IMG/VR virus record: IMGVR_UViG_3300050015_000702
Length of the DNA: 64,000 nucleotides
Reading direction: 5' to 3' (one strand)
Source: a virus
The first letter of the stretch is position 1. Every line of letters begins with the position of its first letter. The notes below the pieces were generated by a model. That model made no database searches and had not been told where the DNA came from. It was given only the letters and a program-made list of their open reading frames with translations. The translations under genes were made by a program, and so were the position numbers. Of the stretch, positions 231 to 61,752 are shown piece after piece.

Positions 231-1028
231 ATGCTAGTAAACGAATCTGTGTATTCCTTCCTAAATGAAGAATTTATAGCTCAGGAAACACTCAATGAAA
301 AATTCGACATCAATACCATCAAGGATAAAGCTAAAAAAATTGCTATCCTTGCCACAATGTTTTTGATGACAGCCAGTAATAAGGGATTTAAAGACCTTCC
401 TTCAAAGAAGGAACTCATGAATAATCCAACATTTGGGGTTCTTGCTAGCCAAAGAATTCTTACACCTAAAGAAATACAGCAAAAATTTGAAAATCTTTTT
501 GATCTTTATTTTGAAGATGGTCCAAAAATAAATTATGATATTTTGCAGGATCCAATGACTTTAAAAACAAGTCCGGAAGGAATGGTTTTCATTAAAGACC
601 ATGAAAAACTTAGATTAGATGCTTATACGATTGGGGATGGGATGATTACAGTAGGATGGGGTCATGCAGAACCTCAAGAATCATCTCAATGGAAAGAAGG
701 TCAAACAATTTCTGAAGCACAAGCTGCAAAATTATTCGGAGAAGATATAAAAACTATTGAAATTGGAATTAGGGATCTATTCAGACTATGGAAGAGCAGA
801 GGATTAGATATAAAAATATCTCAGAATATGTGGGATTCTATGGTTTCCATGGCATTTAATATGGGGGTAGACGGTCTAAGGGGATCTGAAATGATTTTAT
901 CTTTACGAGATAAAGATTATTTGCAGGCTGCGGATAGCATTTTAACTGCTAATGTAGATCCTAAGTTTCCGGGATTAGAACCCAGAAGAGAAGAAGAAAG
1001 AGAATTATTTTTAAAGGGTCTTATTTAA
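231..1028 (+). CDS. GH24 phage lysozyme with N-terminal extension
   Basis: C-terminal HEKLRLDAY..G....TVGWGH...SMAFNMG...GL..RR.EE motifs; start moved to 231 behind the promoter; leader has VNE/LNE sites. Confidence 0.85.
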   Translation: MLVNESVYSFLNEEFIAQETLNEKFDINTIKDKAKKIAILATMFLMTASNKGFKDLPSKKELMNNPTFGVLASQRILTPKEIQQKFENLFDLYFEDGPKINYDILQDPMTLKTSPEGMVFIKDHEKLRLDAYTIGDGMITVGWGHAEPQESSQWKEGQTISEAQAAKLFGEDIKTIEIGIRDLFRLWKSRGLDIKISQNMWDSMVSMAFNMGVDGLRGSEMILSLRDKDYLQAADSILTANVDPKFPGLEPRREEERELFLKGLI

Positions 1029-1524
1029 TTTCCTTTTTATAATATTTCATGAGCATATTTTTGGTTTCTTTATTCTTAGCATTTGAAACAAAGACTCCAA
1101 AATTTGTAGCTCTCATAGCTCTTTTGCCATCACTATCGTGAACACTTATATTTCTTGTTGAAAATTCACCTTTTAACTCAGAAGTCCCCTGATCAAGTTT
1201 AAGTATTTCTTCTCTAAAAAGATTGGGAATTGTAAGAACTGCTTTAACTGCTTGCATATTCCCATCCTGTATAGAAATCCAAAGCAATTCGTTATTGTTA
1301 TCAGAAGCATCTATTATATCTCCATTGACCCACTTCTTTCCATTCATGCCAACAATATATGGAAATACGAAGTCTTTCTTCTTTTTTAAAGCCCATTCCC
1401 ATACTTGATAAAAGTTTTCATAATCAAACACACTATCCTCAGCTTCCATCATTGTTTTAATCTTGGGCCCAAGACCAATCCCCAGTGCTTGTTTGGGGTC
1501 CATATCCCTTTGAAAGTGATTCAT
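1021..1524 (-). CDS. FERG-module protein, ankyrin-like segment
   Basis: Starts MNHFQRDMDPKQALGIG; start at 1524 lies directly behind a TACATTTG box. Confidence 0.6.
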   Translation of the reverse strand: MNHFQRDMDPKQALGIGLGPKIKTMMEAEDSVFDYENFYQVWEWALKKKKDFVFPYIVGMNGKKWVNGDIIDASDNNNELLWISIQDGNMQAVKAVLTIPNLFREEILKLDQGTSELKGEFSTRNISVHDSDGKRAMRATNFGVFVSNAKNKETKNMLMKYYKKEIK

Positions 1525-1528
1525 ACAG

Positions 1529-1536
1529 CAAATGTA
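1529..1536 (-). promoter_or_regulatory. Bacteroidota-type -7 promoter box TAnnTTTG (TACATTTG)
   Basis: Exact match 4 nt upstream of ATG 1524. Confidence 0.6.
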
Positions 1537-1575: not shown

Positions 1576-2814
1576 TTATGCTCCAGAACCTTTGGATTTG
1601 AATTCTTCATATTCGGTGGCATTAAGAGTTCCCCTGGCGACAACTCTTACTTGTTCGAGAACCCACTCAAATTGCGAATTTACCTTTTTGGCTTTTAATA
1701 AGTAAGGTTCGAATAATTTTAAAATTTTGGCTCTGCCTTCGGGGTCTTGTTTAGGTTTCGGAAGAGTATATGACTCCCCAATACCAAATTTATCCTTTCC
1801 CCATATTCTTTGAAGGGTAATAAAGTCATAATCGTTAAAAGCGTCAACATCTTCCCATCCACCTGTATTTCCGGTTATTACTCCAACAGATTTAAGAGCA
1901 TTGATTATTGTTTGATGAATTGGTCCTTCCTGAGAGAAAGCAAGATATAAATCTCCATTGTTCATCACAACTCCTCTAACCCCTTTATCAAATCCTTCTA
2001 GGGTCTTAGGATTTTTATAAATTGGAACGTTTTTAACCTTTGTAATCGGTTTACCATATTTTTGAATAAAGTATTGTTTATCAAATTCTTCGTCTGGATC
2101 AGCTATTCCAAAATGCTGGGTCATATACTTATCTGCCACCCCTTCACTAGTAAGAGAAGCCATATTCCAAGCTCTCCTTTCCTGATATTTAGGATGTGTT
2201 GAACCCCATCCCTGGGGTACTTTCTTTTTCTTTAACATTGGAGATTTGGCATGTTCTTTACCCAATTCTTCTTCTGATCTGGTTCCCCCAAATTGATAAT
2301 CTTTAATTGGTATAAGTTTAGATTGAAATTGACCCTGATGTCTCCAAGGGCCGGAAAGCATAATACCATTATCATCTGTAACAATATCCGAATTGCCCGG
2401 TATAATTTCAACTTGCCATTCTGGATCATTTATAATTCGGTAATCATCATTTGGGTAATAATACTTGAGTTCATCGCCCATTTTCTTAACCATATCAAAG
2501 AATTCTTCTTTGTCAGGATATTCCCAGAAACTCATAATTTTATGATAAAACCATAGTCGGCCCGGAAACATGCCATCTTTTCTAGATACTCCATAAGGGT
2601 GTGTAGATTTTGCAGGACCAAATTGAAATTTTCCTTCTCCGTCTATCCAAAATGGATGAGCATCTTCGCTTTCATAGTCCAATTCAAAATTATCCCCCTC
2701 AACATCTTTGCCAGCATCAGAAGGATAACCATCTGGGTCATACTTTCCATTAAGAGATAGCCAGTCTGGACTCTCAAATAATTGGTCTAGCGATTCGCAA
2801 ACTAGTTTTTTCAT
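1576..2814 (-). CDS. hypothetical protein, probable head-packaged, two-domain
   Basis: 412-aa ORF; MKKLVCES...LFES leader and internal LTSE site. Confidence 0.55.
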   Translation of the reverse strand: MKKLVCESLDQLFESPDWLSLNGKYDPDGYPSDAGKDVEGDNFELDYESEDAHPFWIDGEGKFQFGPAKSTHPYGVSRKDGMFPGRLWFYHKIMSFWEYPDKEEFFDMVKKMGDELKYYYPNDDYRIINDPEWQVEIIPGNSDIVTDDNGIMLSGPWRHQGQFQSKLIPIKDYQFGGTRSEEELGKEHAKSPMLKKKKVPQGWGSTHPKYQERRAWNMASLTSEGVADKYMTQHFGIADPDEEFDKQYFIQKYGKPITKVKNVPIYKNPKTLEGFDKGVRGVVMNNGDLYLAFSQEGPIHQTIINALKSVGVITGNTGGWEDVDAFNDYDFITLQRIWGKDKFGIGESYTLPKPKQDPEGRAKILKLFEPYLLKAKKVNSQFEWVLEQVRVVARGTLNATEYEEFKSKGSGA

Positions 2815-3776
2815 TATTCTATATCTCCCATAGCATTGTACAATGCATCATTTATAACATCTGGTTCCCAGTCTCCCATCCATGCACTACCAGAAGGCAC
2901 AGTCCATTTTATTTTTTCATCACCAGTAGCAATACAATATGATAGAAGTTTTAATCCTTTTTTAGAAATTTCTCCTACGAGAATTTCTTTCTCATTATAT
3001 TCAGGTTTTTGAGTAAAATCAAAATGTTTCATAATAGCACTTTGAAGACTTTTTAGACATGCATCTTCATCTGCTACTGACTGTGTTTCTGAAAATGCTC
3101 GCTGAACAGCTTCTTTTAAAGTTTCCAGCTCTTCATTATCATTTATCTAGTTTAATAAATCGTCTAAGCTCGTAACATTTTCTGGGGATGCCCCCATTTC
3201 TATAGCAGTTGTCTTTAAATCTTCAAGAGCTGGGACATTTCCTTTTTCTACGGTTTTGCTTAAATACCAGCCGGATTGAGTAATATCTTCATACTCTTCC
3301 ATATCTCTTTCAAAATGTTCGTAAGAATCTTCCCCGCATAAAACATCTCCTATAAATTCTAAACTAACATCTCTACTCTGCGAATCAAAAAGATCTCTGA
3401 AATCAAGCCAAGCACCAAAATGAAGATAATATTTGTCCCCTTCTACTGTATAGCCAAAATCATTACCCATAATAGGAAGGTAAGGAATCCATTCGATATT
3501 ATTTTGCTTCAAGACATAATAAAGATTTTCATCAGCCTCTGTAGCATATTTTTTAGGCATGGTAATTAGAAATTGAGCCCACTTTTTACGAGTCTCTGTA
3601 TCTAATTCTAAATTTGAATTATCCAAAATATCATAAACCCAGGATCCCGGCTGTTCACCAGAATGTTCCTCCATAAACTCATTAATGGTTGCTTCAAGGC
3701 CAATTCCAAGAGTTTCTTTACTCATAGGTCCCCGTTCAAAATTTTGAACCTCTAATATTGATTCAGGAACTAGCAT
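2814..3776 (-). pseudogene. FERG-module protein interrupted by a single in-frame TAG (3147-3149); pseudogene, readthrough or sequencing error
   Basis: ORF 3147..3776 continues past TAG as INDNEELETLKEAVQRAFSETQSVADEDACLKSLQSAI in frame into ORF 2814..3032. Confidence 0.65.
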
Positions 3777-4219
3777 ATAATCATTTCTCCAACCTGACAA
3801 AGTTTTTGTATTTGTTCTTTAGTAAATTTGGTAGTATTTCTTTTGATGAAAAAGTTTCCATCAACACGTTTTGGACAGCCTTCCAGATCCTCGATTTTAT
3901 TACCATCAACCATAAAATCCCCATGAATAAAATACGGGCATCCTTTCATAGTTTTAAGATATTGGTCTCTGATTAAAAAATCTCCAAAACATTCATTGAA
4001 CTGAATAAATTCAGGTAACTCATACATAATGTTTGAACTCTTTGGCATAATAAAATCTCTTTTAAGATCCACAGTCCAGTCTGAATTGATTGTGTAAGAT
4101 ACAGAAGGGAGATGCTGTCTTAACCATGCATCCAATTCTTTTTTCTTACCCAATTTCAAAACATCAGAGGGGTTTTGGCCCCTCTGAAATTCCAATATTC
4201 TTTCTCGAACAATATTCAT
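3770..4219 (-). CDS. FERG-module protein with LRR-like (L..LKGCP..V.G.F) repeats
   Basis: IVRE..FQRGQNPSDVLKLG leader; LKTMKGCP and LEGCPKRVDGNF repeats. Confidence 0.65.
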   Translation of the reverse strand: MNIVRERILEFQRGQNPSDVLKLGKKKELDAWLRQHLPSVSYTINSDWTVDLKRDFIMPKSSNIMYELPEFIQFNECFGDFLIRDQYLKTMKGCPYFIHGDFMVDGNKIEDLEGCPKRVDGNFFIKRNTTKFTKEQIQKLCQVGEMIIC

Positions 4220-4235: not shown

Positions 4236-5792
4236 CTAGAAGATCTCTTTGTACTTAGCGATAAATGCGTCGATACCTTTTTTGAATTTGTCTCTTCCCT
4301 CAACTTCACCTAACTCTTCGTGAATGTATGGGTGAATTTCGATCATCATCTTTAAACCACGGGTTGCAAGTGAAGCATTATCAAGTCTGATTAGGTACTC
4401 AACATAGTTTTCAAATTCCTTGGGAGTTAGGTCTCTTCCTCTTGTTGCTGTACAAACTAATGAAATAAGAGCATTTGCTTCTGACTGATCATATCCTGAA
4501 CCAGCTTTCTTAGGCATACGTGCTTTTCCTGGGTTAGTTAAAACTTCCTGTATGTCTTCTTTCTTAAATGTTTCAAGGAGTTTTAAGAATGTTGCAAATT
4601 CAGTTGCAATATCAACACCAACATCAGAACCAACTACGCCTGTAATATCTTTAATTGTAGGTCTGTAACCTTCATCTTTCGCATCTTGCATTAAAGCTGC
4701 AATGTTCTTTGAAGCTGCTTCCCATGAACGTGGGGATGCAAAGATACTCTTTTCTGGATCATCATCAAGTGTATAGAAATATTCCTGGTTGAATTCTAGG
4801 AAGTCAAGGATACGTGGGTCAACTTTATCAATAGCCCATTCTTTCCAACCTTTGAAATCAGGTATGTAGTTAACCTGGGAGAATCTGTTACCAAGAGCGG
4901 TAGAGAAGTTCTGAACACCTTCTGGATCGTCACCGGCTCTGTTAGAAGCTGATACGATTGCCCATTTGTCTCCAAGTTGTGCATCCCCAATAATTCTTTC
5001 ATCGATAAGTTTTAAACAAGTATTCTGAACTGAACCAGATGCTCTTGAGAGCTCATCTAAGAATAAGATTCCACCTGCACCAGCATTACATATTTCATTT
5101 CTACGTTTGTTTTCTTCTGGGTCATTGCTTTTTATAAAAACAGGTAACCAAGCTTTAGGAATATCTCTTGCTTTAATTTCTTCTGCAACAACGTAAGTTG
5201 CTGGTAATGACCAGTCATCTGGAGCCATTTTAGAGGTCTGAACATCAATTAGTCTCCCCTTTGAATTAGCTGATAGAACTGCCTTAACAATAGCGGTTTT
5301 ACCAATACCAGGTGCTCCCCAAATCATAAGAGGTTTAGAGGTTGGGTTTTTGATAGCCATTCTAATTCTTCTATAAAGATCTTTCTTGTCAACATTAAGA
5401 ACGTTCTTATCGGGGTGATCTAGAGTTATTCGAGCTTCATTAAGATTTTCATTAGTTTTATTAGTCTTATTGCCCGAATCCTCCCCACCTCTTTTTGACA
5501 TAATCTGTGCTTCAGTAAGAGAACTTAGTCCTGGTTCAAGATCTTTATCGGCTTGAGAAGGAAGATAGGAAACACCTTTATATAAGGATCCTGCCTTGGT
5601 TAAAATACCAACGTTTACCGGAGCTATAGCTTCTGTAACGGGTTTACCATTAAACATAAAGAAAAAGAACTTACCAAGTTTCTGGAAGAATTTCTTTACA
5701 GCTCCTATTGCTTTGCTAAATATAGCTTCGTTTAGATCCCCTTTTTTGATTTGATAATCTTGTAGGGTTTCGCATACTAATTGTTTCTTCAT
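4236..5792 (-). CDS. MoxR-like AAA+ ATPase
   Basis: Walker A GAPGIGKT, Walker B ILFLDE, sensor I SASN, ALGNRF, SPRSW; adjacent VWA gene. Confidence 0.9.
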   Translation of the reverse strand: MKKQLVCETLQDYQIKKGDLNEAIFSKAIGAVKKFFQKLGKFFFFMFNGKPVTEAIAPVNVGILTKAGSLYKGVSYLPSQADKDLEPGLSSLTEAQIMSKRGGEDSGNKTNKTNENLNEARITLDHPDKNVLNVDKKDLYRRIRMAIKNPTSKPLMIWGAPGIGKTAIVKAVLSANSKGRLIDVQTSKMAPDDWSLPATYVVAEEIKARDIPKAWLPVFIKSNDPEENKRRNEICNAGAGGILFLDELSRASGSVQNTCLKLIDERIIGDAQLGDKWAIVSASNRAGDDPEGVQNFSTALGNRFSQVNYIPDFKGWKEWAIDKVDPRILDFLEFNQEYFYTLDDDPEKSIFASPRSWEAASKNIAALMQDAKDEGYRPTIKDITGVVGSDVGVDIATEFATFLKLLETFKKEDIQEVLTNPGKARMPKKAGSGYDQSEANALISLVCTATRGRDLTPKEFENYVEYLIRLDNASLATRGLKMMIEIHPYIHEELGEVEGRDKFKKGIDAFIAKYKEIF

Positions 5793-5816: not shown

Positions 5817-6536
5817 TCATTTGTTTTCATCTATTGATTTCTGAATTGATGCTCTTCTTGCCGAACTTATTTCTGTTCTTGGATTATTAAGAAGTAATTC
5901 GACCATTGGAATCCAGTTTGGGGCTTTAACCCCTACTTTATTCAATTTAGATACTGCACCTATTAAAGCTTGCGATGGGTTAACTCTAGGATCTTTTAAA
6001 AGTTCTTGAACGATTGCAAGATTATTTTCCAAAGCAGCTATTTTAATAATGTAATTAGGTACCTGCGTTTCATTAAACTGATTGTCTAATACCATTTTAG
6101 AATCGGCTGGATTAACTCTTGAGTCAGCTAATAAAACTTTAACAGCTTCTAAGTGATTTTTTTCGACGGCATTAGCTAAAGCTATGTTATGATGATCAGC
6201 TGGGTTAACTCTTGGATCCGATAAAAGTATTTGAATTATTTCAGCATTTCCTTCTTTAGAAGCAATATCTAAAAAATGATTTCTTCTTGCTGATGGATCC
6301 ACAGAAGGATCAGTAACTAAAAGTTTAACAATATCAGGTCTGCCAGCTTTGATAGCAGATTCCAATATCCAGGGCTTGTCTTCCATGGTTAGTTTCTTCG
6401 AAAAAGTATTCATTGTAGATTTTTTATTGTATTCTTCAATAAAATCTCCAATCAATTTTTCTCGACCAATTCCCATGGCAGCTTTAGGATCGCCACCACG
6501 AACAAAATGAGCAATATTTTCTTCTACTAGTTTCAT
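5817..6536 (-). CDS. ankyrin-repeat protein with FERG module
   Basis: Repeats D/NP..N.AL..A...G....V..LL.DPRV; leader LVEE..HFVRGGDPKAAMGIG. Confidence 0.8.
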   Translation of the reverse strand: MKLVEENIAHFVRGGDPKAAMGIGREKLIGDFIEEYNKKSTMNTFSKKLTMEDKPWILESAIKAGRPDIVKLLVTDPSVDPSARRNHFLDIASKEGNAEIIQILLSDPRVNPADHHNIALANAVEKNHLEAVKVLLADSRVNPADSKMVLDNQFNETQVPNYIIKIAALENNLAIVQELLKDPRVNPSQALIGAVSKLNKVGVKAPNWIPMVELLLNNPRTEISSARRASIQKSIDENK

Positions 6537-7477
6537 ACTTGACCAGATCTCCTTAGTTCATCGAATCTTTTTATATCAACGGGTTTCATATAATTTATTT
6601 TATCTCTTACCCTTTGATCTCTTACTAAAACTTTGCAAACTTCGATATGATGATTTGCTACTGCTTGAGCCAAAGCCCAATTATTTCTATATGATGGATC
6701 CACTCGTTTGTCTTTCATAAGAAGTTCTACAACTAAAGGAAATCCTTCTTTTGCAGCCTGTCTTACACAATATTGACGTTCATCATTTTTATATCGTTTA
6801 CCATCTATAGTAGTATCTGCTGGGTCCACTTCAGGATGGGTTAAAAGTAATCTTACTAATTCAAGCTGGCCTCTTCTAGAAGCTTGTTGAATAGCTTCAT
6901 TTGATCTTGTGTTTGCATTTGTACATCCATTCTCTAAAGCCCATTTTTGTAGTTTTGGAGAACCATACTCTGTGGATAAAACCATGCATCTATTAACTGT
7001 GAGCTGCTCTTTTGCTTTTTCAACTAAGGTATCTTCATCCATTTGACGCAATTCTATCCAAGTGTGTTCATTAATCCAAGTCTTTGGAGCATTCCATATT
7101 TCATCCATTCTATTAAATGTGAAAAATACTCTAACCCACCCGGCAGCATTGTGTTCTAATTTATTGGGATTCATTGAGGGGACTTTGTCCATGATTTTAG
7201 TCATCAAATCATACTTGACTGAATCTTTTGGAGTATTTCCATATTCATAAATGAATTTCCTCGTATCAATGATATACATCTTGTCTTGAGTAACTTCACC
7301 CATATTTGTTGGAAACATCGAAAAATCCCCCTTCTTTACCAATGAATCATATGCTATCTCTTTCAGCAGTTCCTGAAATACTGCAATTCTTCCAACTCCA
7401 ATTTGTTCAACTGGTGTTCCCTCACGAGTAAACCCCTGAGCTTCATTAAACCCTATCAAACTTTCCCTAACGATCAT
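6533..7477 (-). CDS. ankyrin-repeat protein with FERG module
   Basis: C-terminal ankyrin repeats (NEAIQQASRRGQLELVRLLL, NWALAQAVANHHIEVCKVL); leader IVRES...FTREGTPVEQIGVG. Confidence 0.8.
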   Translation of the reverse strand: MIVRESLIGFNEAQGFTREGTPVEQIGVGRIAVFQELLKEIAYDSLVKKGDFSMFPTNMGEVTQDKMYIIDTRKFIYEYGNTPKDSVKYDLMTKIMDKVPSMNPNKLEHNAAGWVRVFFTFNRMDEIWNAPKTWINEHTWIELRQMDEDTLVEKAKEQLTVNRCMVLSTEYGSPKLQKWALENGCTNANTRSNEAIQQASRRGQLELVRLLLTHPEVDPADTTIDGKRYKNDERQYCVRQAAKEGFPLVVELLMKDKRVDPSYRNNWALAQAVANHHIEVCKVLVRDQRVRDKINYMKPVDIKRFDELRRSGQV

Positions 7478-9087
7478 TAATTTACACTAATTTGCTTACC
7501 AAATGGTTGTTTGAATTGTGGATTGTCATAGATAACCCAAATGAATTTATTCCAGAATGGTGGTTTCTTAGGCATTGGAGCGAATCCATCTGTAAAATAA
7601 ATGCAGAGGGAAACCCTATCTTTTAAGTGTTCATGAATCCAATCAAGTGGTTTTTGGAATGATGTACCACCACCGCCAGAAACATTCTTAGGAATATAAG
7701 GTTTTCCCATTCTTTTAATAGTCTGAACACTCTTATCATCAACTCCATCATCAAAGAAAGCAACGGTAATTTTGTTGATCTTTTTAGAGAAAATGATTTG
7801 ATTGATTTCATTAAGAATCTTTTCAAGAGCTTCTTTACCCATTGAACCAGATACGTCCACCATTACAACAATATTTTCGATAGCATCCATTTTATGTTTT
7901 TCCCCATAACGAAGAAATTCTTTTCCTAAATGCTTTTTGTTTCCCAATCTTTGGTAAACTTCTGGAGATAATGCTGTAGCAACATATCTTCTGAATAGAT
8001 TTTGCCAGTTTACGTCTCCCTTATGTAAACGATATAATGCTTTGATTAAAGCGCTTCCTTTTCCTTGGCCTGCTTTCCCTGAAGATTTCTCAGCACGTTC
8101 GAGCATCTTAGCACCTTCAACTCTCCATTTATCCGTAGCATTTTCATCTGGACCCGATTCATCTTCACCATAACCGGATTTTTTAGCAAGTTTTTTACCT
8201 TGATCCTCTGTCATAACCCCACCTGTACCAGCTGGATCTTCATCCTCCATCTGTTTGTAGATTTCATCTTCGCCTGATTCACCAGCTCCACCTATAGGTT
8301 TTTCTCCTGGTTTACCGGGTTTTCCTTTACCTTTTCCTGGTTTTCCTGGCTGACCATCGCCTTCTCCTTCTCCTCCTTCTCCTTCGCCTTCTCCTTCCCC
8401 GCCTTCACCTGGATCTCCTTGATCTGGAGGACCGCCTTCACCCTTACTTGACCCCTGATTACCTTTACTATTTGGATTCTGAGGTGGTTTTTGAAATTTA
8501 GGATCCTTTTTAATTTGTTCGTAAATTGTTTCAACTGGCAAATTAAGAAATTGGGGATCATAAAGTCCGCCAAGAGCTTTAAGGAATGCTTCATTGAAGT
8601 CACTTAAAGTATCTATAATGATTGCGTTAATTTCATAGTCACCAGCATAATTGAAGATCTTTGGATTTCTTCCTTTGATCCTCTGCATGTGAAGAAGTAC
8701 ACAGTGCATAATTTCATGAATGATGACAAAGATTTTTTGTTCCCATGTTAATTTATTGGCAAACATTGGGTTAACAAATAAACGGGTACCATCTGTAGCC
8801 ATCGTAGGAACAAGCCAAGTATAAATTGGAGTAAATCTATGAACATAGGGAGCAAATAGAGGGGATTGAGAAACAATAGCTGTTTTAGCACTTTCCATTT
8901 CTCTTTTCAAGTGGCCCATATCTATTTTAGTACCATCTTTGGCATAAACATAAGCATAGTCCTCAATCTTATTAGATCTTGGTGTTGCTTCACCTTGCGG
9001 TCTTATCTGCGCAAATTTGTCTTCTGCAGTTGGAGCAGGACCTGCTTCATTTAAAAAATCCTCAAATTGTGGATAAAATCTTTCCAT
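7477..9087 (-). CDS. DUF2201-type HExxH metallopeptidase-like domain + VWA domain (MoxR partner)
   Basis: TMATDG, HEIMH, G/E/K-rich linker, MIDAS DVSGS...GGGGT...FTDG. Confidence 0.85.
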   Translation of the reverse strand: MERFYPQFEDFLNEAGPAPTAEDKFAQIRPQGEATPRSNKIEDYAYVYAKDGTKIDMGHLKREMESAKTAIVSQSPLFAPYVHRFTPIYTWLVPTMATDGTRLFVNPMFANKLTWEQKIFVIIHEIMHCVLLHMQRIKGRNPKIFNYAGDYEINAIIIDTLSDFNEAFLKALGGLYDPQFLNLPVETIYEQIKKDPKFQKPPQNPNSKGNQGSSKGEGGPPDQGDPGEGGEGEGEGEGGEGEGDGQPGKPGKGKGKPGKPGEKPIGGAGESGEDEIYKQMEDEDPAGTGGVMTEDQGKKLAKKSGYGEDESGPDENATDKWRVEGAKMLERAEKSSGKAGQGKGSALIKALYRLHKGDVNWQNLFRRYVATALSPEVYQRLGNKKHLGKEFLRYGEKHKMDAIENIVVMVDVSGSMGKEALEKILNEINQIIFSKKINKITVAFFDDGVDDKSVQTIKRMGKPYIPKNVSGGGGTSFQKPLDWIHEHLKDRVSLCIYFTDGFAPMPKKPPFWNKFIWVIYDNPQFKQPFGKQISVN

Positions 9088-9100: not shown

Positions 9101-10273
9101 TTAATTATATAGATTACCTAAAACTTTGATTGTAGCTCTAATTTGCCAATCCTTCCATTTCTTTGGACCTCCGTAAATTGAAAAATCCCCGCGAACTTCT
9201 TTAGGAAATCCTCTTAAAGATTCAAAGCTATTATTTGCAGCATAAAAACCTCCTTTGACCAAATTAAAATTGATAAATTCGGGCAATTCAGATAATCCTT
9301 TTCCCACTATATTTATATCGTCAAAAGCATCGATAGTTTCATCAGGGTTAATCTTATATTCCGTTTCAGGTATTCCCATAGATTTAAACCAGCTTTTAAT
9401 CTGGTAATGTTCTCCAACTTCAAGTTTTTCAAGCGGTTCTGCATCTCTTTCAAAATTTACACCTTCATTTGTCTTTTTAGTATCTACCCAAATCGTTTTA
9501 GATAATACTTTGCAAACTTTTGTAACATCTCCTCTAGTAAAGTTACCGGGATTTTTATAAGCAATAAAATTTCCTTCAATAAGTTTTGGAGCATGTTCTA
9601 ATGTCATAAGTTCATTATCAAAACACTTAAAATTACCTTTATAATTAGCTGTTCCTTTAACTTTTATTGGACATCCTCGAAGAGTTGTAAGACGGTTTTT
9701 AGAAATATTAAATCCGCCCCAAACAACATTAAACTGAATATATGAGGGTAATTCGCCACCTTCAACTTTACCTTCTAGATTTACAACCGCACCATTCTTT
9801 TTATCCGAATAGTCAATAGTTAGATCTTCATTTAAATTATAAAAATAGAGTTCTTTTTCATGCAACCATTTTTCTATAAGAACTTTTTTGCCAATTCCTA
9901 GTGATGCTTTAGGATCTTCGTAACGTGTAAAATTTTGAGATTCATTAGTTTTAGCACGAACATTTAAATATCCGATTAACCCCCCAAGCGCATCTTTAGC
10001 ATTATCATAATAATCTGTTCGATAATCTGTCGTCACAGCAACCCATCTTTTTCCATCCCCATCTCCATCACTTTTTGATTTCAAAATTAATACTGGTTGT
10101 GATAAATCTCGTAAAATGCTAACAATATCGAAATTTTGTTCAATAATATCCAAAGGCAAATCCCATTCGGTTTCTTCCACTATTTTTTTGTCTAGAATTT
10201 TCTTCCCAATTCCCATAGAAGCTAAAGGTTCTTGACCACGTTCAAAATTAATATTTTCTTTCACGATTATCAT
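9101..10273 (-). CDS. three-module FERG protein (possible polyprotein), two LRR-like domains
   Basis: Modules begin IVKENINFERGQEP, TNESQNFTRYEDP and TNEGVNFERDAEP. Confidence 0.7.
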   Translation of the reverse strand: MIIVKENINFERGQEPLASMGIGKKILDKKIVEETEWDLPLDIIEQNFDIVSILRDLSQPVLILKSKSDGDGDGKRWVAVTTDYRTDYYDNAKDALGGLIGYLNVRAKTNESQNFTRYEDPKASLGIGKKVLIEKWLHEKELYFYNLNEDLTIDYSDKKNGAVVNLEGKVEGGELPSYIQFNVVWGGFNISKNRLTTLRGCPIKVKGTANYKGNFKCFDNELMTLEHAPKLIEGNFIAYKNPGNFTRGDVTKVCKVLSKTIWVDTKKTNEGVNFERDAEPLEKLEVGEHYQIKSWFKSMGIPETEYKINPDETIDAFDDINIVGKGLSELPEFINFNLVKGGFYAANNSFESLRGFPKEVRGDFSIYGGPKKWKDWQIRATIKVLGNLYN

Positions 10274-10276: not shown

Positions 10277-10687
10277 TTATTCGTTTAATTCTTCTACTAT
10301 AACATATCCGCCAACTTCGCATACTTTTCTAATATCCTCTGCAGGGGGAGGGGGTAAGTTTACAACGCCGGGATAATATACGGTCAACTCTCTGCCAACA
10401 TAACTCGGAAATCCTTTTAATGCTAGTGGGGATCTAACGAAACATTTGAAGTCCATACGTATAGTTCCAAATTTAATATACTCTGGAAACGTATTGAATA
10501 AAGTTTCGCTCAAGTCTATATCTTCTGCATCTATCTTTAAATTTTTTGTAAGAATAGGCCCTATAATGTTATTAAATTGCCTCATTTCTGCAATCCATTT
10601 TAAGATAAGCGGTTTTCGACCAATCCCCATTGAAACTACCGGTTCCTGACCGCGTTCAAAATTATGTATGCTTTCTCGAACTATCAT
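10277..10687 (-). CDS. FERG-module protein, LRR-like
   Basis: MIVRESIHNFERGQEPVVSMGIG; FPEYIKFG...LKGFP.YVG. Confidence 0.65.
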   Translation of the reverse strand: MIVRESIHNFERGQEPVVSMGIGRKPLILKWIAEMRQFNNIIGPILTKNLKIDAEDIDLSETLFNTFPEYIKFGTIRMDFKCFVRSPLALKGFPSYVGRELTVYYPGVVNLPPPPAEDIRKVCEVGGYVIVEELNE

Positions 10688-47364: not shown

Positions 47365-47637
47365 TTAATTGTTCATCTCTCTATTTATCCAAATCTGCAT
47401 TTCGTTCCAATCAGGATTATCCCAATGATATGATTCAACATCGTTATTCCTTGCAATGTTATTTCCAAGTTCTTCATCGGAATCTTTGGGTTCCCATACA
47501 ATTTCGGAAACATGTTCAAAATTATTGGAATAGTAAGTATCCTGCAATATTTTGTTGTCTAAAATCTGTCGACCAACGCCCATTGTTCTAATAGGATCTC
47601 CGCTTCTTTCGAAATTTATTTTTTCGGATACTATCAT
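47365..47637 (-). CDS. small FERG-module protein
   Basis: MIVSEKINFERSGDPIRTMGVGRQILDNKI, similar to module 1 of 9101..10273. Confidence 0.6.
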   Translation of the reverse strand: MIVSEKINFERSGDPIRTMGVGRQILDNKILQDTYYSNNFEHVSEIVWEPKDSDEELGNNIARNNDVESYHWDNPDWNEMQIWINREMNN

Positions 47638-49965: not shown

Positions 49966-50370
49966 TTAATACTGGCTTCTTTGCAGTGGTTCAAAATACC
50001 ATTCCCATTTATCTAAAGTTCCCCAAGTATGAAAATTAGAAGGTGATTTTCCATTACTCAATTGAACAATAGCTGTTCCATTTTGCAGCTCTTTTGCATG
50101 TTCTAAACTCCCCGCTCTTTCTAAATGCATTCCTATAGGATTCGACATAATAACATTATAAGCCCAGAAGTAAGTATCTGCTGGATAATGATCTCCAAGA
50201 ACATAATCGGGTCCTATTTCTCCATTAATCTTTTTAACACTAAAATCTATTTTAGACTTAATTATATCCCCAGACTTAACACTAGCCATGGTTTTTAAGC
50301 CAATATCTAGAGCTTTATAGGGTTCCTGATGTTGTTTAAATATTTTTTCGTTTACAAATTCAGCTTTCAT
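49966..50370 (-). CDS. FERG-variant module protein
   Basis: FVNEKIFKQHQEPYKALDIG then ..KSGDII, homologous to the modules in the upstream gene. Confidence 0.6.
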   Translation of the reverse strand: MKAEFVNEKIFKQHQEPYKALDIGLKTMASVKSGDIIKSKIDFSVKKINGEIGPDYVLGDHYPADTYFWAYNVIMSNPIGMHLERAGSLEHAKELQNGTAIVQLSNGKSPSNFHTWGTLDKWEWYFEPLQRSQY

Positions 50371-50372: not shown

Positions 50373-51215
50373 TTATGTAGTTTCATATTCTTCATCATAT
50401 TCACTTGGCTGAATGATCTTAAACCATTCATTCCATGCTTCAATAGGTTTAACAGACCAACAAGTTCTTATATTTGGGAGAATTCCTTCTTTTACTTCAT
50501 TTGAAATATTCCAGGCACGTCTAAATACAGAGCCGCTTTGATACAAAGTAATGGACCAATCGTCATCTATTTTTGAGGATTCTTTAACTATAAAATATCT
50601 TCCTGGATTGTCATCATCGGTCATATCTTCATTATCTGAAAAATATAATCTCTGATCTGTTGAGGAAGCTCTATAAACTCTTTTTATATTTCTTATTATA
50701 TCTCCGGGTTTTAATTTCTCCCAAGTAGTAATACCGATGTCCAATTTCTTAAGTGGACTTCCACCGCGATCAAAAGCTAATGATTCTCTCAAATTTTTAG
50801 GACTAACTACTTTAAAAAATTCCATCCATACACTAGGACTTTTTATTCCAGTTACTGTAGCAAATATTTTTCCAAAATCGGGATTTTTTTGAATCTTTTC
50901 TGCTGTTTCTTCAATATCTTTATCCAAATTTTCCATTCCTATTAATTCAATAGACAATTTGTTATCTTGAAGAATCGCATCTCTCTTGAGTATTCCAAAA
51001 TCTCCAACTCTCCAATAATACCCAAAGCTCCTATTTTCGGGAGTATAAAAAATTAGGTCTTCTTTTTCACTTACCCAAGCTTCTTTAATACACCTAAGAA
51101 CATCACCCCTTTTAAGATCATCAAAGCCACGCATACCAACATCCATTCTACGTAAAGGTTTTCCTCCACGTTCAAAATGTTGTTGTATCGCTTCTCTAAT
51201 TAAAAGTGCTTTCAT
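50373..51215 (-). CDS. two-module FERG protein
   Basis: IREAIQQHFERGGKPLRRMDVG and LRESLAFDRGGSPLKKLDIG, each followed by LK.GD(V/I). Confidence 0.65.
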   Translation of the reverse strand: MKALLIREAIQQHFERGGKPLRRMDVGMRGFDDLKRGDVLRCIKEAWVSEKEDLIFYTPENRSFGYYWRVGDFGILKRDAILQDNKLSIELIGMENLDKDIEETAEKIQKNPDFGKIFATVTGIKSPSVWMEFFKVVSPKNLRESLAFDRGGSPLKKLDIGITTWEKLKPGDIIRNIKRVYRASSTDQRLYFSDNEDMTDDDNPGRYFIVKESSKIDDDWSITLYQSGSVFRRAWNISNEVKEGILPNIRTCWSVKPIEAWNEWFKIIQPSEYDEEYETT

Positions 51216-51673: not shown

Positions 51674-51949
51674 TTAAAGTATCTCTTGTGTAACTAATAT
51701 TCCATCATCTGTAAGAGGTTCTCCGTCCCATCTATCCCCTTCTCCAATCTCTTCAATTATTTGTCCGATTAATTCAGCTTGTTCTTCGTCATCGGCTTGT
51801 ATAACCATAAAATTAGAATAAGCATCAAATTTAAAATGAATTTTATTCTTTCTTAATTCGGGAATAATAGTTTGAAGCATATCCAAACCATTGGCCATGG
51901 TATAATATCCAAAACCGTTTCCTTCTAAACTTTCTTTCACTAATTTCAT
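51674..51949 (-). CDS. small acidic protein with LVKES leader
   Basis: MKLVKESLE; directly downstream of the portal. Confidence 0.55.
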   Translation of the reverse strand: MKLVKESLEGNGFGYYTMANGLDMLQTIIPELRKNKIHFKFDAYSNFMVIQADDEEQAELIGQIIEEIGEGDRWDGEPLTDDGILVTQEIL

Positions 51950-51953: not shown

Positions 51954-53780
51954 TTATACTCCTAATTCTTCTTCACCCCCTGCTGCTGGTTCTTCTGCTC
52001 CGCCTTCACCACCAAGTTCTCCACCACCGCCTAAGTCTCCAAGTCCCCCACCAAGTTCTCCACCGCCGCCTAAGCCGCCGCCACCTTCACCGCCGAAACC
52101 ACCTCCGCCGCCAAGTTCTCCACCGCCACCTTCACCACCAGGCTGTTGACCTGTTGCTGCGTTGAGACGTGCATAAGCTTGAGCAAGTTTACGAACTTCT
52201 TCTTCTCTTTCTTTCTTATATTTAGCGTTGAGCTTAATATCTGCTTCTGTAAATTCCATGAACTTCTCAACCAAAAATTTAGGGTCAAAATAGTTCTTTT
52301 CTCCTGGAGTTCCATCTGGATTAACAGTAGGTTCTTTAATTCCAGCAATACTTGTAATTGTAGCGGATCCCTTTTCTGCAAGAGATCTTTCTTTCATTTT
52401 CTTGAATAAGTTTTCTTCAATGAAATCAAGACCAACAGATCCCTGAAGTACTCTGTCTTCTTTAAATTCTGGATGTTTTAAAAGGAATTGAATCCAAAGA
52501 GGTTTAAGAAGGATTTCCTGGAAAGTAGAACGAATTCTAATAATGAAATTAGAAAATCTCATTTCCTCTCTAGCAACACCTTCACCGCCATCACCCCAAC
52601 TTCCGCCATTACCGCCTTCTGAAGATTCAGCGGAATTATTAAATCGGGAACTAGGTACTTTGGTTTCGATAATGAATCTCTGCCAGAAATATTTAAGAGA
52701 TTCTGTATTAGATAAGTCGTATCCTTGTGGTTGGAATCCATCGATTTCTGTCTGAGCTCCATCACGGGTAGGAATAACGAATGTCTTGGCGAAATTGAAC
52801 TGAGCGGAACCATTGTAGGTTACTTCTCCGGATTCATCCGAGATGTTTAACTCTTCCTTGTACATACCACGTAATTCTGATAGTCTTGTACGAGCTTTAG
52901 CATCTGATTGGGATCCAATCGGAACTAAGATTTTAACCCTCATCTGAGCGTTCCAAACGTTCCAAATAATACGTGAGTTTTCAAGTGTTCTCATCATGTT
53001 AAATGAACGAACTAATCTCTCAACATATGAAAGTCTTCCAATAAAGTTACCTCGTGCCCAGGATATGTAAATAAGGTTAGAGTCAACTAATTCTCTTTGT
53101 TTTCTTGCATCACCACGATACTGAATCCAAACACGATATTCCTCGCCATCATTATTAATACGAACTTCTGGTTCAAGTGATATTGGGTCAAGTTCCTTTA
53201 GAGCAATAATGTTCTTAGCATTCTCTTCGCCTTCACCATCATAAATGATTTCAAATGCGAGGAATCCATCAATAAGGAATTTCTTTAAATAATGCCAGCC
53301 ATCGTGACCCTGATTGAATTTGAAAGCAAAATAGATTTTTCTGAAGCATTCATTTAAATCTTCTACAATTTCTTTTGCTTTATCTTGTTTTAAGACAGAT
53401 TTAAGGTTCTTTGTTGCTGGGTAAGCAAAATAGTTCTGATCGTCATAGATGATCGTTTCGTCTGCAATAATTTCAATAACGTTTTCTATTTCACCATTCA
53501 TTGCAAACTTACGAAGGAAGTCTCTACGTGTAGGATATTCCTTATCATAGAATGCGATAAATTCTTTTTGACCATAGTCAGTGCCAGCATAGTTTCCCTG
53601 GTAGTAGAGTCCATACATGGAATCTAACTGAGCTTCAGCTATACCAACGGACTTAGACTGTTTTATAACTTTTTCGTCCCATTTCATGCCCAGGGAACTC
53701 AAATTGCGTATATTTCTCTGAAGTTGTCCGACAAGACCCATTCGTCTGCCGTCCACATTTTTCATTGTGAATCCAGCCAT
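51954..53780 (-). CDS. portal protein, T4 gp20-like, Gly/Glu-rich tail
   Basis: KKFLIDG, ELDP, SYVERLVRSFN.MR.LE.SRIIW, YF......TKVP.SRF, REE.RF..FI.R.R..F. Confidence 0.9.
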   Translation of the reverse strand: MAGFTMKNVDGRRMGLVGQLQRNIRNLSSLGMKWDEKVIKQSKSVGIAEAQLDSMYGLYYQGNYAGTDYGQKEFIAFYDKEYPTRRDFLRKFAMNGEIENVIEIIADETIIYDDQNYFAYPATKNLKSVLKQDKAKEIVEDLNECFRKIYFAFKFNQGHDGWHYLKKFLIDGFLAFEIIYDGEGEENAKNIIALKELDPISLEPEVRINNDGEEYRVWIQYRGDARKQRELVDSNLIYISWARGNFIGRLSYVERLVRSFNMMRTLENSRIIWNVWNAQMRVKILVPIGSQSDAKARTRLSELRGMYKEELNISDESGEVTYNGSAQFNFAKTFVIPTRDGAQTEIDGFQPQGYDLSNTESLKYFWQRFIIETKVPSSRFNNSAESSEGGNGGSWGDGGEGVAREEMRFSNFIIRIRSTFQEILLKPLWIQFLLKHPEFKEDRVLQGSVGLDFIEENLFKKMKERSLAEKGSATITSIAGIKEPTVNPDGTPGEKNYFDPKFLVEKFMEFTEADIKLNAKYKKEREEEVRKLAQAYARLNAATGQQPGGEGGGGELGGGGGFGGEGGGGLGGGGELGGGLGDLGGGGELGGEGGAEEPAAGGEEELGV

Positions 53781-55923: not shown

Positions 55924-56325
55924 CTAGAGTTTTAATCCATATATCTTTTCAACATTTGCTATACTTAATACTGTCTCGCTAGAGAAAAGTTCTTTGGGAG
56001 CTAACTGATTACCCATAAATGGGATTCTTGTCCACTTCCAAAATACCCAAGGTTTCCAGAATCCGTGTGTAAATACTCTTACCGAATCCTTTGGAACATT
56101 TGGATGCTGAACAAATCGAATCTGAAATCTTTTAGTGAATGTTTCATAACGAAAACACTCTTCAATTTTAAAACGATGATTGAATTCTCTAAAAGTATTT
56201 GAGCCATCTTCAGCAGAAGGAACCCAGTTCTTATTATACTTAACAATCTGGGTGTTATCTAATTCGATAACTGTTTGATACGAATTTATTTTTTCCATGA
56301 TATTGAGTTTAAAATCTTCCACCAA
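55924..56325 (-). CDS. hypothetical protein
   Basis: ORF between gp4 and the endonuclease. Confidence 0.5.
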   Translation of the reverse strand: MVEDFKLNIMEKINSYQTVIELDNTQIVKYNKNWVPSAEDGSNTFREFNHRFKIEECFRYETFTKRFQIRFVQHPNVPKDSVRVFTHGFWKPWVFWKWTRIPFMGNQLAPKELFSSETVLSIANVEKIYGLKL

Positions 56326-59058: not shown

Positions 59059-61103
59059 TATGCAATGGTTTTCTTTTTCTTTAGAAATACCCTACGTTTC
59101 TTAGGAGCTTCTGGTTCTAATTCTGTTTGAGCATCAGTAGCTTCATCCTTTGGTTTTTCTTCGTCTTCTTCCTCTGGTTTCTTTTCGGGTTTTTCTTCAA
59201 CGTTAACATCGTCAGTTGGTTCATCAACATCGGCTTCGGTGTTAGTTTCGATCTTGTCTTCTTCACCACCTGCAAGGTCTGGAGATTCGGTACCATCACC
59301 GTTTTCTTCTTCTCCATCTTCAGTTCCAGCTTCTGCTTCTGCCTCTTTATCGGCTTCTGCTTTGTCTGCTTCTGCACCAACTTCATCTGAACCCATAGAT
59401 ACACTATCAGTAGAAATTGTTGGGGTATCACCTAACATTTCGGTTTTGTCATCGTCAAAAGTTACTGCTGAAGCAGGCTCTTTTTCCATATCTTCTTTAC
59501 CAACTTCTGATCCGGCTTCGCCTTCTGCACTGCCCTGACCACCATCGGCTGGAATAGGTACAGTAAATTTCTTTCCATCAACATCTACAGTGATTGTAAT
59601 AGATTCGCCAAGTGGACGAACGTATTTTTCAGCAACGTTTAGATAGTCTTTGTAATCATTTCTAACTTCGGTAAGTTCTTCATCCAAAGCTTCAAGAACT
59701 TTAACAACGGTTGGGGTTGCATATTCGCCTTTGAACTGAGATATTTTAGTTTCAAGAGCTGCAATATAGTCAGTATATTCTTTTTTAGTATCAGCTATTT
59801 CTTCAAGGATTTTTTCCTGTTCTGGAAGTAAACCTTCGAATAGACGAGAAACGTCATATCTTAGGTGTTCCATCATGATGCCCTTAGCTTGAATAGGGTT
59901 AACGTTACGATAGAAAGTACTCTTGCCATCTGTAGCATTATGGGTGGCAATGAAAATGTTGCCACGGAGTTTAAACACATCAGCAGCGTGATTTAAATCC
60001 TCTTTTAGGAATACCCGTTTTGCAAAGTCAATTTCTGCGATTTCGTCGAAGTTCTTTTTGAACATTTCAACTAAACCAAGCAATTTACCTTTACCAGTCC
60101 ACTGTGCTATTGATGCACTTTCAGCGAATGCTTTTGAATCCAATTCCTTTTCATTAAGGATAACTTTATCAGCTGTGATAATAGCTTTGTCGTTTCCTTC
60201 ATAAATGGTAATATTCTTACCGTTGATAATAACGTTTGGATTGTTAATAGCTTCACAAAGCTGAACGAAGTCTCTATCGAGTCTTGCAACTTCTTTTTCG
60301 CCAATACGAGCCACAATATTACCTTTCTTAACATAGAACATTCCACGAACTCCGAATACGGCTTCGTTTTCGCCTAAGTATATGATTGGAGAATATATTT
60401 TCTCAATATCGCAAGTAGCATTTGCATGTTCAAGCTGAAGTTCGGTAGCGTCTAAGGTTACCAAATTGATAATATCACGGATGAAAGGATCGTATGACCA
60501 TTTCATAAGAGATTCTTTAAGGATATGTTTTGTCTGCTCGTTTTTGTTCTCAAGATAATTATTAAGAACGTCTTCGATATACTCAACAAGATAGCGGCTC
60601 TTTGTTTCTTTCATTGTCTCAACAATTTTCTTGAGATCAACATCACTTTTATAGCTGGCTACATTGTCCTGAATATCTTTGATTGCATTTCCTATTCTTG
60701 GGAAATAGTTAAATGCTTGCATAGCAGTCAAGTAAGATTCATATATCGTTACTTCTGGTACCCCATGTTCAAGATGATCCCTATAATATAGAAGAGTTTG
60801 CTTTAGACCTTCGTTCTCATTGGCTTCTTCTCTCATAAGATTCTGAATCGATTCTCTTACTCCAAGATATTTAACAGCCCATGCTCTCTTTTGGTTAGAA
60901 AGCCATGTCTGAACTTCTGGGTCATTTATTTTAGCTAATCCTTCGAATAGGTTTTTAACCTGTACTTTTTCAATTTCATGCTGTGCTTCTGCGGGTACAG
61001 AATTATACATAGCTGAACTTAAGCCAGATATTGCATTTTCGCAAAGGGCTACTACTGCCGCTGATTTGGACTTAGCTTTTAATTGGTTGATTTTTTCTAT
61101 CAT
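59058..61103 (-). CDS. large helical protein with acidic C-terminal tail (prohead core/scaffold-like candidate)
   Basis: 681 aa; many xxE(S/N/A) sites; D/E-rich tail; late promoter 61140-61148. Confidence 0.45.
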   Translation of the reverse strand: MIEKINQLKAKSKSAAVVALCENAISGLSSAMYNSVPAEAQHEIEKVQVKNLFEGLAKINDPEVQTWLSNQKRAWAVKYLGVRESIQNLMREEANENEGLKQTLLYYRDHLEHGVPEVTIYESYLTAMQAFNYFPRIGNAIKDIQDNVASYKSDVDLKKIVETMKETKSRYLVEYIEDVLNNYLENKNEQTKHILKESLMKWSYDPFIRDIINLVTLDATELQLEHANATCDIEKIYSPIIYLGENEAVFGVRGMFYVKKGNIVARIGEKEVARLDRDFVQLCEAINNPNVIINGKNITIYEGNDKAIITADKVILNEKELDSKAFAESASIAQWTGKGKLLGLVEMFKKNFDEIAEIDFAKRVFLKEDLNHAADVFKLRGNIFIATHNATDGKSTFYRNVNPIQAKGIMMEHLRYDVSRLFEGLLPEQEKILEEIADTKKEYTDYIAALETKISQFKGEYATPTVVKVLEALDEELTEVRNDYKDYLNVAEKYVRPLGESITITVDVDGKKFTVPIPADGGQGSAEGEAGSEVGKEDMEKEPASAVTFDDDKTEMLGDTPTISTDSVSMGSDEVGAEADKAEADKEAEAEAGTEDGEEENGDGTESPDLAGGEEDKIETNTEADVDEPTDDVNVEEKPEKKPEEEDEEKPKDEATDAQTELEPEAPKKRRVFLKKKKTIA

Positions 61104-61182
61104 TGCGTTTAGTTATTTGATAAAAACTATGTTTTTCTTTATATATTTAACGAAATCTTAAAATTTTTTCTATTTTTCAAGG

Positions 61183-61752
61183 CTACCAATCAGCCCAGTA
61201 ATGAACATTCGGGGAACCTAATATTTCAACTCCTGCTGGTATATCTTTTTCTGTAAGACCCGATTTATTATTACAAGCAAAATCCCCTCCAATAAATTTG
61301 GCTATGCCGTCAAAAGATTCAATATGAGGATTTAAACTGCAAGCATAATGGCTCTTAACAAATTCAGGACCTCCTACCAAATTCTTTAAATTGTTTCGGG
61401 AACAGCCAAATTCACCATTAACTATTCTGGGGCATCCTCTTAATGAAGTCATTTGGTTTTTATCACCGGTATTCCTTCTAACATCTCCCATAATATTGAA
61501 GTTACAGTTAGCTTCATTAAATTGAATATAATCTGGAAAATTTCCCGGCCAATCTGTAGTAAAAAATCCCTCAAGAATATCAATAGTAAGATCATCATTA
61601 ATTCTAAAGAGACTAGATTTTGTAGCATTTGAAATATTGAACCAATATTCCATCAACCATTCTCGAATTTTTACTCTCATTCCAACCCCCAGGGTCTTTT
61701 TAGGGTCTCCGCCTCTTTCAAAATTTACTGCTATGGATTCTCGAACAATCAT
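61183..61752 (-). CDS. FERG-module protein with LRR-like repeats
   Basis: MIVRESIAVNFERGGDPKKTLGVG; MTSLRGCPRIVNGEF. Confidence 0.65.
   Translation of the reverse strand: MIVRESIAVNFERGGDPKKTLGVGMRVKIREWLMEYWFNISNATKSSLFRINDDLTIDILEGFFTTDWPGNFPDYIQFNEANCNFNIMGDVRRNTGDKNQMTSLRGCPRIVNGEFGCSRNNLKNLVGGPEFVKSHYACSLNPHIESFDGIAKFIGGDFACNNKSGLTEKDIPAGVEILGSPNVHYWADW

Follow-up and report, generated by a model that had tools for sequence, protein, structure and literature searches.

The FERG module of an uncultured peat phage: a repeated linear motif as candidate head-protease cut site and docking handle

Introduction

What is one and the same 20-residue peptide doing in front of so many otherwise unrelated phage proteins? 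The question is raised by IMG/VR virus record IMGVR_UViG_3300050015_000702, a stretch of 64,000 nucleotides (nt) that was analyzed at its full length and is referred to here as the window; 12 of its genes carry a short module, FERG..GIG in outline, and are called FERG genes below. Three peat metagenome runs contain the whole stretch and are possibly its source. A sequence-only reading of the window had proposed that the module addresses virion cargo, with a head protease cutting after a glutamate ahead of it and the FERG block staying at the mature N-terminus as a shared tag. We give somewhat less than an even chance to a reading of the same kind: the tag would be a head-protease cut site joined to a retained docking handle, carried by units that are loaded into the capsid. 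The loading, the cleavage, the ejection and the partner of the handle are what we infer from sequence; the module itself is observed directly.

Fifteen copies on twelve genes

Is the module real, and is it a feature of the protein or of the DNA? A strict pattern, F-x-R-x3-P-x3-[LMIV]-x-[IVL]-G, matches the six-frame translation of the window 13 times, always on the minus strand, as compared with 0–1 matches (mean ∼0.04) in each of 50 shuffles. In a search of all six frames, a profile hidden Markov model (HMM) built from 92 modules picks out exactly 15 copies, spread over 12 genes of the minus strand, at E-values of 6e-16 to 6e-6, and its next match has an E-value of 2.7; the mean of ∼0.04 shuffle matches and this gap rule out chance or a low-complexity artefact. 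Two variant copies fall outside the strict pattern: one in gene 3147-3776 has an extra residue (NFERGPMSKETLGIG), and one in gene 49966-50370 reads F-K-Q (FKQHQEPYKALDIG). The count of 15 copies on 12 genes claimed by the sequence-only reading is thus borne out gene by gene, with one correction: the claimed pair 2814/3147 has its copy in 3147-3776, and the open reading frame (ORF) 2814-3032 carries none. A DNA-level repeat or recombination site is also ruled out, as identical residues share a codon in 46.6% of pairs, as compared with 44.7% expected from codon usage; because of this agreement, selection acts on the protein sequence of the module rather than on the DNA. The FERG genes are as follows.

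1021..1524, minus strand: one module (nt 1474-1524; HMM E-value 8e-10); the protein starts MNHFQRDMDPKQALGIG with no upstream leader, and the true start is likely the Met at 1524
3147..3776, minus strand: one variant module (nt 3696-3758; HMM E-value 1e-12); the true start is likely the Met at 3776
3770..4219, minus strand: one module (nt 4148-4207), then a solenoid like a leucine-rich repeat (LRR) domain (AlphaFold2; weak LRR matches)
5817..6536, minus strand: one module (nt 6465-6524), then ankyrin repeats (Pfam Ank_2, E-value 1.8e-12)
6533..7477, minus strand: one module (nt 7391-7450; HMM E-value 6e-6) with a longer spacer after the leader MIVRES, then ankyrin repeats (Pfam)
9101..10273, minus strand: polyprotein gene with three modules (nt 10205-10264, 9890-9949 and 9413-9472, i.e. 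residues 4-23, 109-128 and 268-287)
10277..10687, minus strand: 136 residues; one module (nt 10619-10678), then an LRR-like domain
47365..47637, minus strand: 90 residues; one module (nt 47572-47631)
47634..48872, minus strand: GNAT-FERG gene; GNAT (Pfam, residues ∼24-75), an internal module (F at residue 102; nt 48528-48587), then ∼290 residues without a recognized fold
49966..50370, minus strand: one variant module (nt 50299-50358; HMM E-value 2e-8), then possibly an SH3-like domain
50373..51215, minus strand: two modules (nt 51135-51194 and 50733-50792); three genes past the portal gene
61183..61752, minus strand: one module (nt 61681-61740), then an LRR-like domain; its start overlaps the stop of the upstream gene of 445 residues

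These genes are co-oriented with the genes of the gp13-like neck protein and the portal, and the gaps between them are tiny or overlapping. FERG genes follow the portal gene both in the window and in another IMG/VR record (G004). Orthologues of the 1021-1524 protein in two relatives (L006 and L011) begin MNFVRGADPKQALGIG, and the cargo units of 50373-51215 are paralogues of 49966-50370, for which the SH3-like call rests on structural rows of the ESM Atlas at template modelling (TM) scores of 0.4–0.55 and is to be taken as a lead.

Anatomy of the module

The consensus was read from 500 internal copies, to which the percentages in this section refer: [LIV]-[NK]-E-S-h-N-F-E-R-G-x-D-P-K-x-[AS]-M-x-I-G. 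Counting from the F as position 0, both this F and the G at +13 are present in 100% of copies, but both were fixed by the search pattern; the R at +2 (99%, with R, Q or K allowed by the pattern) and the P at +6 (98%, with P or S allowed) are nearly as constant. The first Gly of a putative GhG hairpin is 43% conserved. Upstream, E occupies −4 in 98% of copies, L, I, V, M, T or F occupies −6 in 94%, and −3 is S in 77% and one of S, A, G, N or T in 95%; at −7 and beyond there is no conservation. The upstream [LIV]-x-E of the sequence-only reading is therefore a real and position-specific part of the module. From copy to copy the spacing has a median of 118 residues (interquartile range 109–134).

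At true N-termini, the copies are of two kinds: 20 of 59 open with MNFERG and have nothing upstream, and the remainder have a leader that consists of M and 3–6 residues ending in E (for example, MIVRE, MKLVKE or MKAKxVxE). Four further proteins of the window begin with the same leader and lack the FERG core: a MoxR ATPase and a lysozyme, whose orthologues in a relative (L009) also keep it, and the following two.

1576..2814, minus strand: protein of 412 residues with leader MKKLVCESLDQLFESPD, a degenerate module without GIG
51674..51949, minus strand: protein of 91 residues directly after the portal gene; leader MKLVKESL, no FERG core

An internal MASLTSEG stretch of the 1576-2814 protein corresponds to MASLTSES-MNFERG in a relative, and a 197-residue protein of L009 that resembles the start of the 1576-2814 protein also has the leader, beginning MKIVKESLKIFESPD. 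The lysozyme gene (189-1028, plus strand) has its probable start at M231 (MLVNESVY...), and its L009 orthologue starts MIIYESVY; the N-terminal 120 residues hold three [LV]-N-E motifs and a hydrophobic stretch.

In other words, [LIV]-x-E-S is near-invariant wherever residues lie upstream and dispensable at true N-termini, which fits the pattern expected of a cut site. The core would be more than a protease recognition site, because FERG..GIG is kept in the MNFERG proteins, where nothing can be removed. As far as sequence conservation can tell, these 14 residues are far more conserved than a protease site requires and hence must bind something.

A motif outside any shared fold in predicted structures

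What follows the module differs from gene to gene. The sequence-only reading had listed ankyrin, LRR-like, GNAT-fused and other domains behind the motif, and this diversity is recovered here: ankyrin repeats in two genes and GNAT in one by Pfam, and LRR-like domains in 3770-4219 and its paralogues by AlphaFold2, weak Foldseek rows and the ESM Atlas. Collected from the window and the IMG/VR loci, 92 non-redundant units fall into 54 BLAST clusters. Pfam recognizes ankyrin in 6 of 89 multi-module proteins and GNAT in 2 of 89, three other families appear as single marginal matches, and the same scan of the 89 proteins finds no embedded peptidase.

The units also move. The 10277-10687 product is 66% identical to residues 376-506 of the four-module protein P0046, which form its final unit. 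In place of the polyproteins of some phages, others have rows of separate MNFERG genes, and in three related proteins (P0043, P0039 and P0059) a GNAT domain is followed by several modules. Even between the window and a near-identical genome (L030), the FERG gene sets differ between the gp13-like gene and the VWA gene. Window positions 9101-11517 correspond to L030:7028-11485, where L030 has five other genes, one of 425 residues without a module and four FERG genes, and a four-module version of the three-module protein of the window; the stretch is a hyperplastic region.

Predicted structures place the module outside the folded parts. For the 3770-4219 protein, AlphaFold2 gives a mean predicted local distance difference test score (pLDDT) of 85, with residues 1-9 below 50 and residues 11-20 at ∼57; a helix begins at the motif Pro and continues into the solenoid. 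Foldseek on this model returns weak LRR-type rows only, none at an E-value of 0.001 or below. For the three-module 9101-10273 protein, pLDDT falls below 50 at residues 1-16, 18-22, 70-72, 110-127, 265-271 and 277-286, all but 70-72 of which lie in modules, and the predicted TM-score of 0.42 indicates domains that are not fixed relative to one another. Because the segments of low pLDDT coincide with the modules, the module behaves in these models as a disordered linear motif that heads each domain and belongs to no shared fold. The sequence-only reading had named a motif integral to one shared fold as what would overturn it; AlphaFold2 instead sets the motif in low-confidence linkers.

A common family without a name

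How widespread is the module? The HMM scan of related genomes that the sequence-only reading had suggested gives 38, 20, 25 and 18 copies in four IMG/VR fragments of 66–137 kb. A degenerate DNA pattern finds 21 loci in IMG/VR with more than 100 copies altogether. Against 1.84 billion representative proteins, the profile matches 2,130 clusters (50% identity) at E-values of 0.001 or below, 98 of them at 1e-30 or below, and metagenomic proteins carry up to 12 copies (in 1,511 residues). Ten clusters were looked up; all are metagenomic, and none has a name beyond "hypothetical protein".

Annotated collections are silent on the module. No model in Pfam, PHROGs or NCBIfam covers it, a PDB profile search with the module gives no match, and a literature search for the motif strings gives none. 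Among GenBank phages, neither tblastn of a 30-residue consensus nor blastn of 4 kb finds a match; the HMM finds none in four huge-phage genomes (LR756500-504), where an empty result is weak evidence of absence. In bacterial genomes, the degenerate DNA pattern yields only single scattered matches, most of them from actinobacteria of high GC content, and none of the loci is multi-copy. The family is new, unannotated and very common.

Head machinery and the putative cut site

Does the phage encode a protease that could cut at [LIV]-x-E? The window itself encodes head and neck proteins of T4 type, namely a gp13-like neck protein, a gp2-like DNA end protector and the following portal.

51954..53780, minus strand: T4-type portal, gp20 family (Portal_T4, E-value 1.7e-53)

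The protease is found on a near-identical 169-kb ENA contig. Its protein P0174 (788 residues) is an S77/S80 protease of the gp21 family (PF03420) with GELDHP (His) and SSR (Ser) motifs and a protease domain at residues ∼1-230, fused to a long scaffold-like tail of ∼550 residues that is rich in [LIVM][NK]E: P0174 holds 10 such tripeptides, as compared with 3.5 expected, and its orthologue in G001 holds 8 [LIVM]NE, as compared with 1.0 expected. A Gp23-family capsid gene stands directly after the protease gene, followed by a cluster of glycosyltransferases and methyltransferases. In its N-terminal region, the gp23-like capsid protein reads HALNE/ADMGG, which presumably resembles the start of mature T4 gp23; LNE/A is a likely maturation site, inferred in that the alignment to the mature gp23 chain starts further downstream.

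The same layout of protease-scaffold and gp23-like genes is found at L050:4275-8466, with the gp23-like gene at 6712-8466, and in L051 and L052, and a patatin-like gene lies ahead of the protease in L050 and L052. The S77-scaffold fusion has 5,484 homologues. Because the layout is present on contigs of 376 and 405 kb, the clade includes huge phages. Within the window, the ORF at 46670-47329 (minus strand) was considered as a prohead protease and rejected: it is rich in Lys, Glu and Gly, of low complexity, and without a PDB or family match. Its 219-residue product, encoded just downstream of FERG genes, could be a filler like a scaffold or internal protein. A second S77-like protein lies beside DnaB on a near-identical contig (L035:2-745), ∼19 kb past the window end. 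It has LGCLGYP and FRSRG in place of GELDHP and SSR, with an intact-looking IGELNHPDR ∼70 residues upstream, and is probably a pseudo-protease; a diverged paralogue of the prohead protease is also present in SPN3US (PMC5694885).

These observations allow a scheme to be drawn. The module would be a composite short linear motif that heads each ∼120-residue unit of a large, fast-changing family of phage proteins and polyproteins. At its [LIV]-[NK]-E-S part, the gp21-family (S77) prohead protease that the phage itself encodes would cut after the Glu, and FERG-x-DPK-x-[AS]-M-x-I-G would stay at the new N-terminus as a docking handle for a common partner, for which the scaffold core, the inner capsid wall and DNA are candidates. 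Assembly of the prohead would take in the tagged proteins and polyproteins, cleavage would release single units of ∼14 kDa, and these would later leave with the DNA, like the internal proteins of T4; in the 9101-10273 protein, the internal cuts would fall after E111 and E270. The T4 protease of the S77 family is active inside the prohead, so that substrates would have to be packaged. Cleavage after a Glu that follows a short motif is characteristic of gp21 and of its giant-phage homologues (PMC9026906).

Weighing the readings

Several points count against this scheme. In T4, the capsid-targeting sequence (CTS) precedes its cut and is removed, whereas the 14 conserved residues of the core here follow the putative cut; a targeting role of the core is conjecture. 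The copy number is very high, with 15 copies in the 64-kb window and 38 in a 132-kb fragment, and we know of no phage head with as many cargo species as there would be if all copies were expressed as distinct proteins; no RNA run is among those that contain the stretch. Over the whole window proteome, [LIVM]NE is only modestly enriched (33, as compared with 19.4 expected, ∼3 standard deviations), and in three relatives the 10 kb on either side of the protease and capsid genes are free of FERG genes. Additionally, a block of FERG genes, a VWA-Zn-peptidase, a FERG-ankyrin gene and MoxR is kept in at least three diverged phages, suggesting another protease or partner.

The block includes two enzyme genes of the window.

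4236..5792, minus strand: MoxR-type AAA+ ATPase (AAA_5) inside the FERG block, with a 119-residue N-terminal extension
7477..9087, minus strand: DUF2201_N putative Zn-metallopeptidase (HEIMH) and VWA domain (metal-site motif DVSGS) inside the FERG block; FLNE-A at residues 11-15

The MoxR protein has the leader MKKQLVCETL and LNE-A at residues 20-23 and 117-120; its LNE-A is conserved in the L009 orthologue, beside a variable linker. The order FERG genes, DUF2201_N+VWA, FERG-ankyrin, MoxR, FERG genes, lysozyme recurs in the window, L009, G001/G003 and G006, among which the proteins are ∼50–65% identical. Because its genes sit in this conserved block, the MoxR/VWA-Zn-peptidase pair has the best support, on gene order, as a candidate binding partner of the core.

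Could the FERG proteins then act in the infected cell, either as clients of the MoxR ATPase and the VWA/Zn-metallopeptidase (DUF2201) or as their interchangeable adaptors? We consider this unlikely, if the strongest of the rivals. Here the acidic E+1 and D+5 would dock on the VWA metal site, by a logic akin to that of F-box substrate receptors, and the Zn-peptidase would cut the polyproteins or act on host proteins by way of the ankyrin, LRR or SH3-like target-binding parts. Conservation of the gene block despite the sequence divergence argues for such a role, as do the DVSGS retained by the VWA domain and the HEIMH retained by the peptidase domain; the recognizable cargo folds are protein-binding modules, and the motif, which is predicted to be disordered, shows much stronger conservation than a protease site by itself would call for. 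This reading leaves two things unexplained: the retention of [LIV]-x-E-S only in copies with residues ahead of them, and the agreement of the tripeptide with the S77-type sites of the capsid protein and the scaffold tail. Most FERG genes, moreover, are far from the MoxR block, and the MoxR and VWA proteins, with their N-terminal LNE-A and FLNE-A, could equally be co-packaged.

A broader version, which we hold to be more doubtful again, makes FERG..GIG a universal plug that fits interchangeable binding domains (ankyrin, LRR-like, SH3-like and other folds) into one phage machine, with the prohead protease only separating the units. The machine would be either the MoxR/VWA/Zn-peptidase complex, whose protease or remodelling activity the plugged-in domains would direct at host defence proteins in the manner of substrate receptors, or the inner face of the HK97-fold capsid protein, through a peptide-in-pocket contact like that of encapsulins. 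If true, a widespread clade of large uncultured phages would possess a protein-addressing system that is both new and programmable.

Perhaps nothing is cut at all? The units would then be beads on a string, with the motif as a flexible linker or docking peptide that fixes variable binding domains to the virion surface (neck, baseplate or capsid decoration) or to a host hub protein, a reading to which we give only a slim chance. Other phages have N-terminal anchor peptides common to interchangeable receptor-binding proteins; in the AlphaFold2 models the modules lie in linkers between independently folding domains, and one copy (61183-61752) lies upstream of the portal in a group of genes without an identification. 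If the motif were purely a docking peptide or linker, a Glu at −4 that is nearly constant in internal copies yet absent from many N-terminal ones would not be expected; ankyrin repeats and a GNAT enzyme are typical of proteins that act inside cells; and the HMM finds no copy in the plus-strand block 15183-41144, presumed to hold tail and baseplate genes (one PHROG match, function unknown). Finally, it is very improbable that the core is a small helix-hairpin-helix-like DNA-binding element whose units ride on DNA, packaged or not: h-x-I-G with an amphipathic helix behind it is reminiscent of the GhG hairpin, AlphaFold2 gives the three-module protein a short helix at DPKxx, a break at GIG and a longer helix, and T4 IPI* is thought to leave the capsid bound to DNA (PMC3012670), but there is no Pfam helix-hairpin-helix match at an E-value of 0.01 or below and no PDB profile match, the first hairpin Gly is poorly conserved, and the single-module model shows one continuous helix at low confidence over the motif.

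The cut site with a retained handle therefore stays the preferred reading. As for the cargo-addressing mechanism put forward earlier, we find it partly supported and the best available, its backing being circumstantial: the cut-site pattern, the S77 protease, the gp23-like capsid protein and the T4-type portal speak for it, and the conserved block after the cut, unlike a T4 CTS, does not.

Genome context and significance

The nearest GenBank phages are huge phages; the identity is 22–28% and concerns a single protein, whose gene neighbours that of the gp13-like neck protein. Among the post-portal FERG genes lies a permuted transfer-messenger RNA (tmRNA; ARAGORN, 48850-49203, minus strand) with the tag peptide GETVNEMRMAA; the tag holds V-N-E, the tripeptide class of the putative protease sites, possibly by coincidence. 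Six homing-endonuclease genes of GIY-YIG/NUMOD3 or TnsA-like type (10684-11517, 42468-43163, 45070-46023, 53797-54594, 55342-55923 and 56309-56926) are scattered among the head and neck genes, and their presence differs from that in near-identical contigs. The window also encodes a protein with three S1 RNA-binding repeats (13842-15080, minus strand) and a sigma-70 family factor with regions 2 and 4 (41834-42535, minus strand).

If the preferred reading is true, the proteins with which uncultured peat and freshwater phages of a large clade load their capsids, and which they probably inject, are all marked by a single 20-residue peptide; thousands of candidate injected effectors and anti-defence proteins, nearly all of unknown fold, could then be listed from sequence only; and a natural polyprotein-and-tag design would be at hand by which T4-like heads could be loaded with foreign proteins. 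Should the idea of packaging fail, what is left is still a very common, strongly conserved and wholly unannotated linear motif.

Comparison with known systems

The polyvalent proteins of phages and conjugative elements (Iyer et al. 2017) reportedly contain known anti-restriction, DNA-modification and peptidase domains, and it has reportedly been suggested that they travel into the host along with the DNA and are then split up. The likeness lies in single polypeptides with many effector-like domains that are carried by mobile elements (PMC5512222). In the FERG proteins, by contrast, only ankyrin and GNAT recur in Pfam, without an embedded peptidase, and a repeated linear tag stands ahead of every unit.

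The cargo-loading peptide of encapsulins has the consensus DGSLGIGSLKG, with two hydrophobic residues around a Gly, and docks in a pocket on the inner face of an HK97-fold shell (PMC7925596). It is a short disordered peptide on unrelated cargo; the FERG module, predicted to be disordered, ends in [ML]-x-I-G, often MGIG; the idea of a capsid-wall partner comes from the core of the encapsulin peptide, LGI. The encapsulin peptides are mostly C-terminal, whereas the FERG module is N-terminal or internal, and the resemblance spans four residues, with the weakly conserved central Gly among them, so that it is a lead and not membership.

In phiKZ, 201phi2-1 and SPN3US, many head-internal paralogues of the ejection proteins or inner body are cut after a Glu that follows a short motif by gp21 homologues (PMC5694885, PMC9026906). 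These paralogues share conserved N-termini, and a diverged protease paralogue is present (PMC5694885, PMC9026906); the DnaB neighbour here is comparable. Their propeptides are mostly longer than 100 residues and are removed; these phages are not known to have a repeated 20-residue tag or polyprotein arrays with a regular spacing of 118 residues.

The closest known system is the CTS of T4 with the internal proteins IPI, IPII, IPIII and Alt (PMC3012670). There are differences: the module has no sequence similarity to the CTS; the 10 residues of the T4 peptide all precede the cut, as compared with 5–9 residues or none upstream here, where it is the core after the putative cut that would be kept; and polyproteins of up to 12 units and dozens of units per genome are found here. 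What the two have in common is a set of small, otherwise unrelated and fast-changing proteins that share a short N-terminal peptide with a gp21-type [LI]-x-E site (PMC3012670, PMC9026906), in phages that both have a T4-type portal, a gp23-like capsid protein and an S77 protease, and at loci that in both vary between close relatives.

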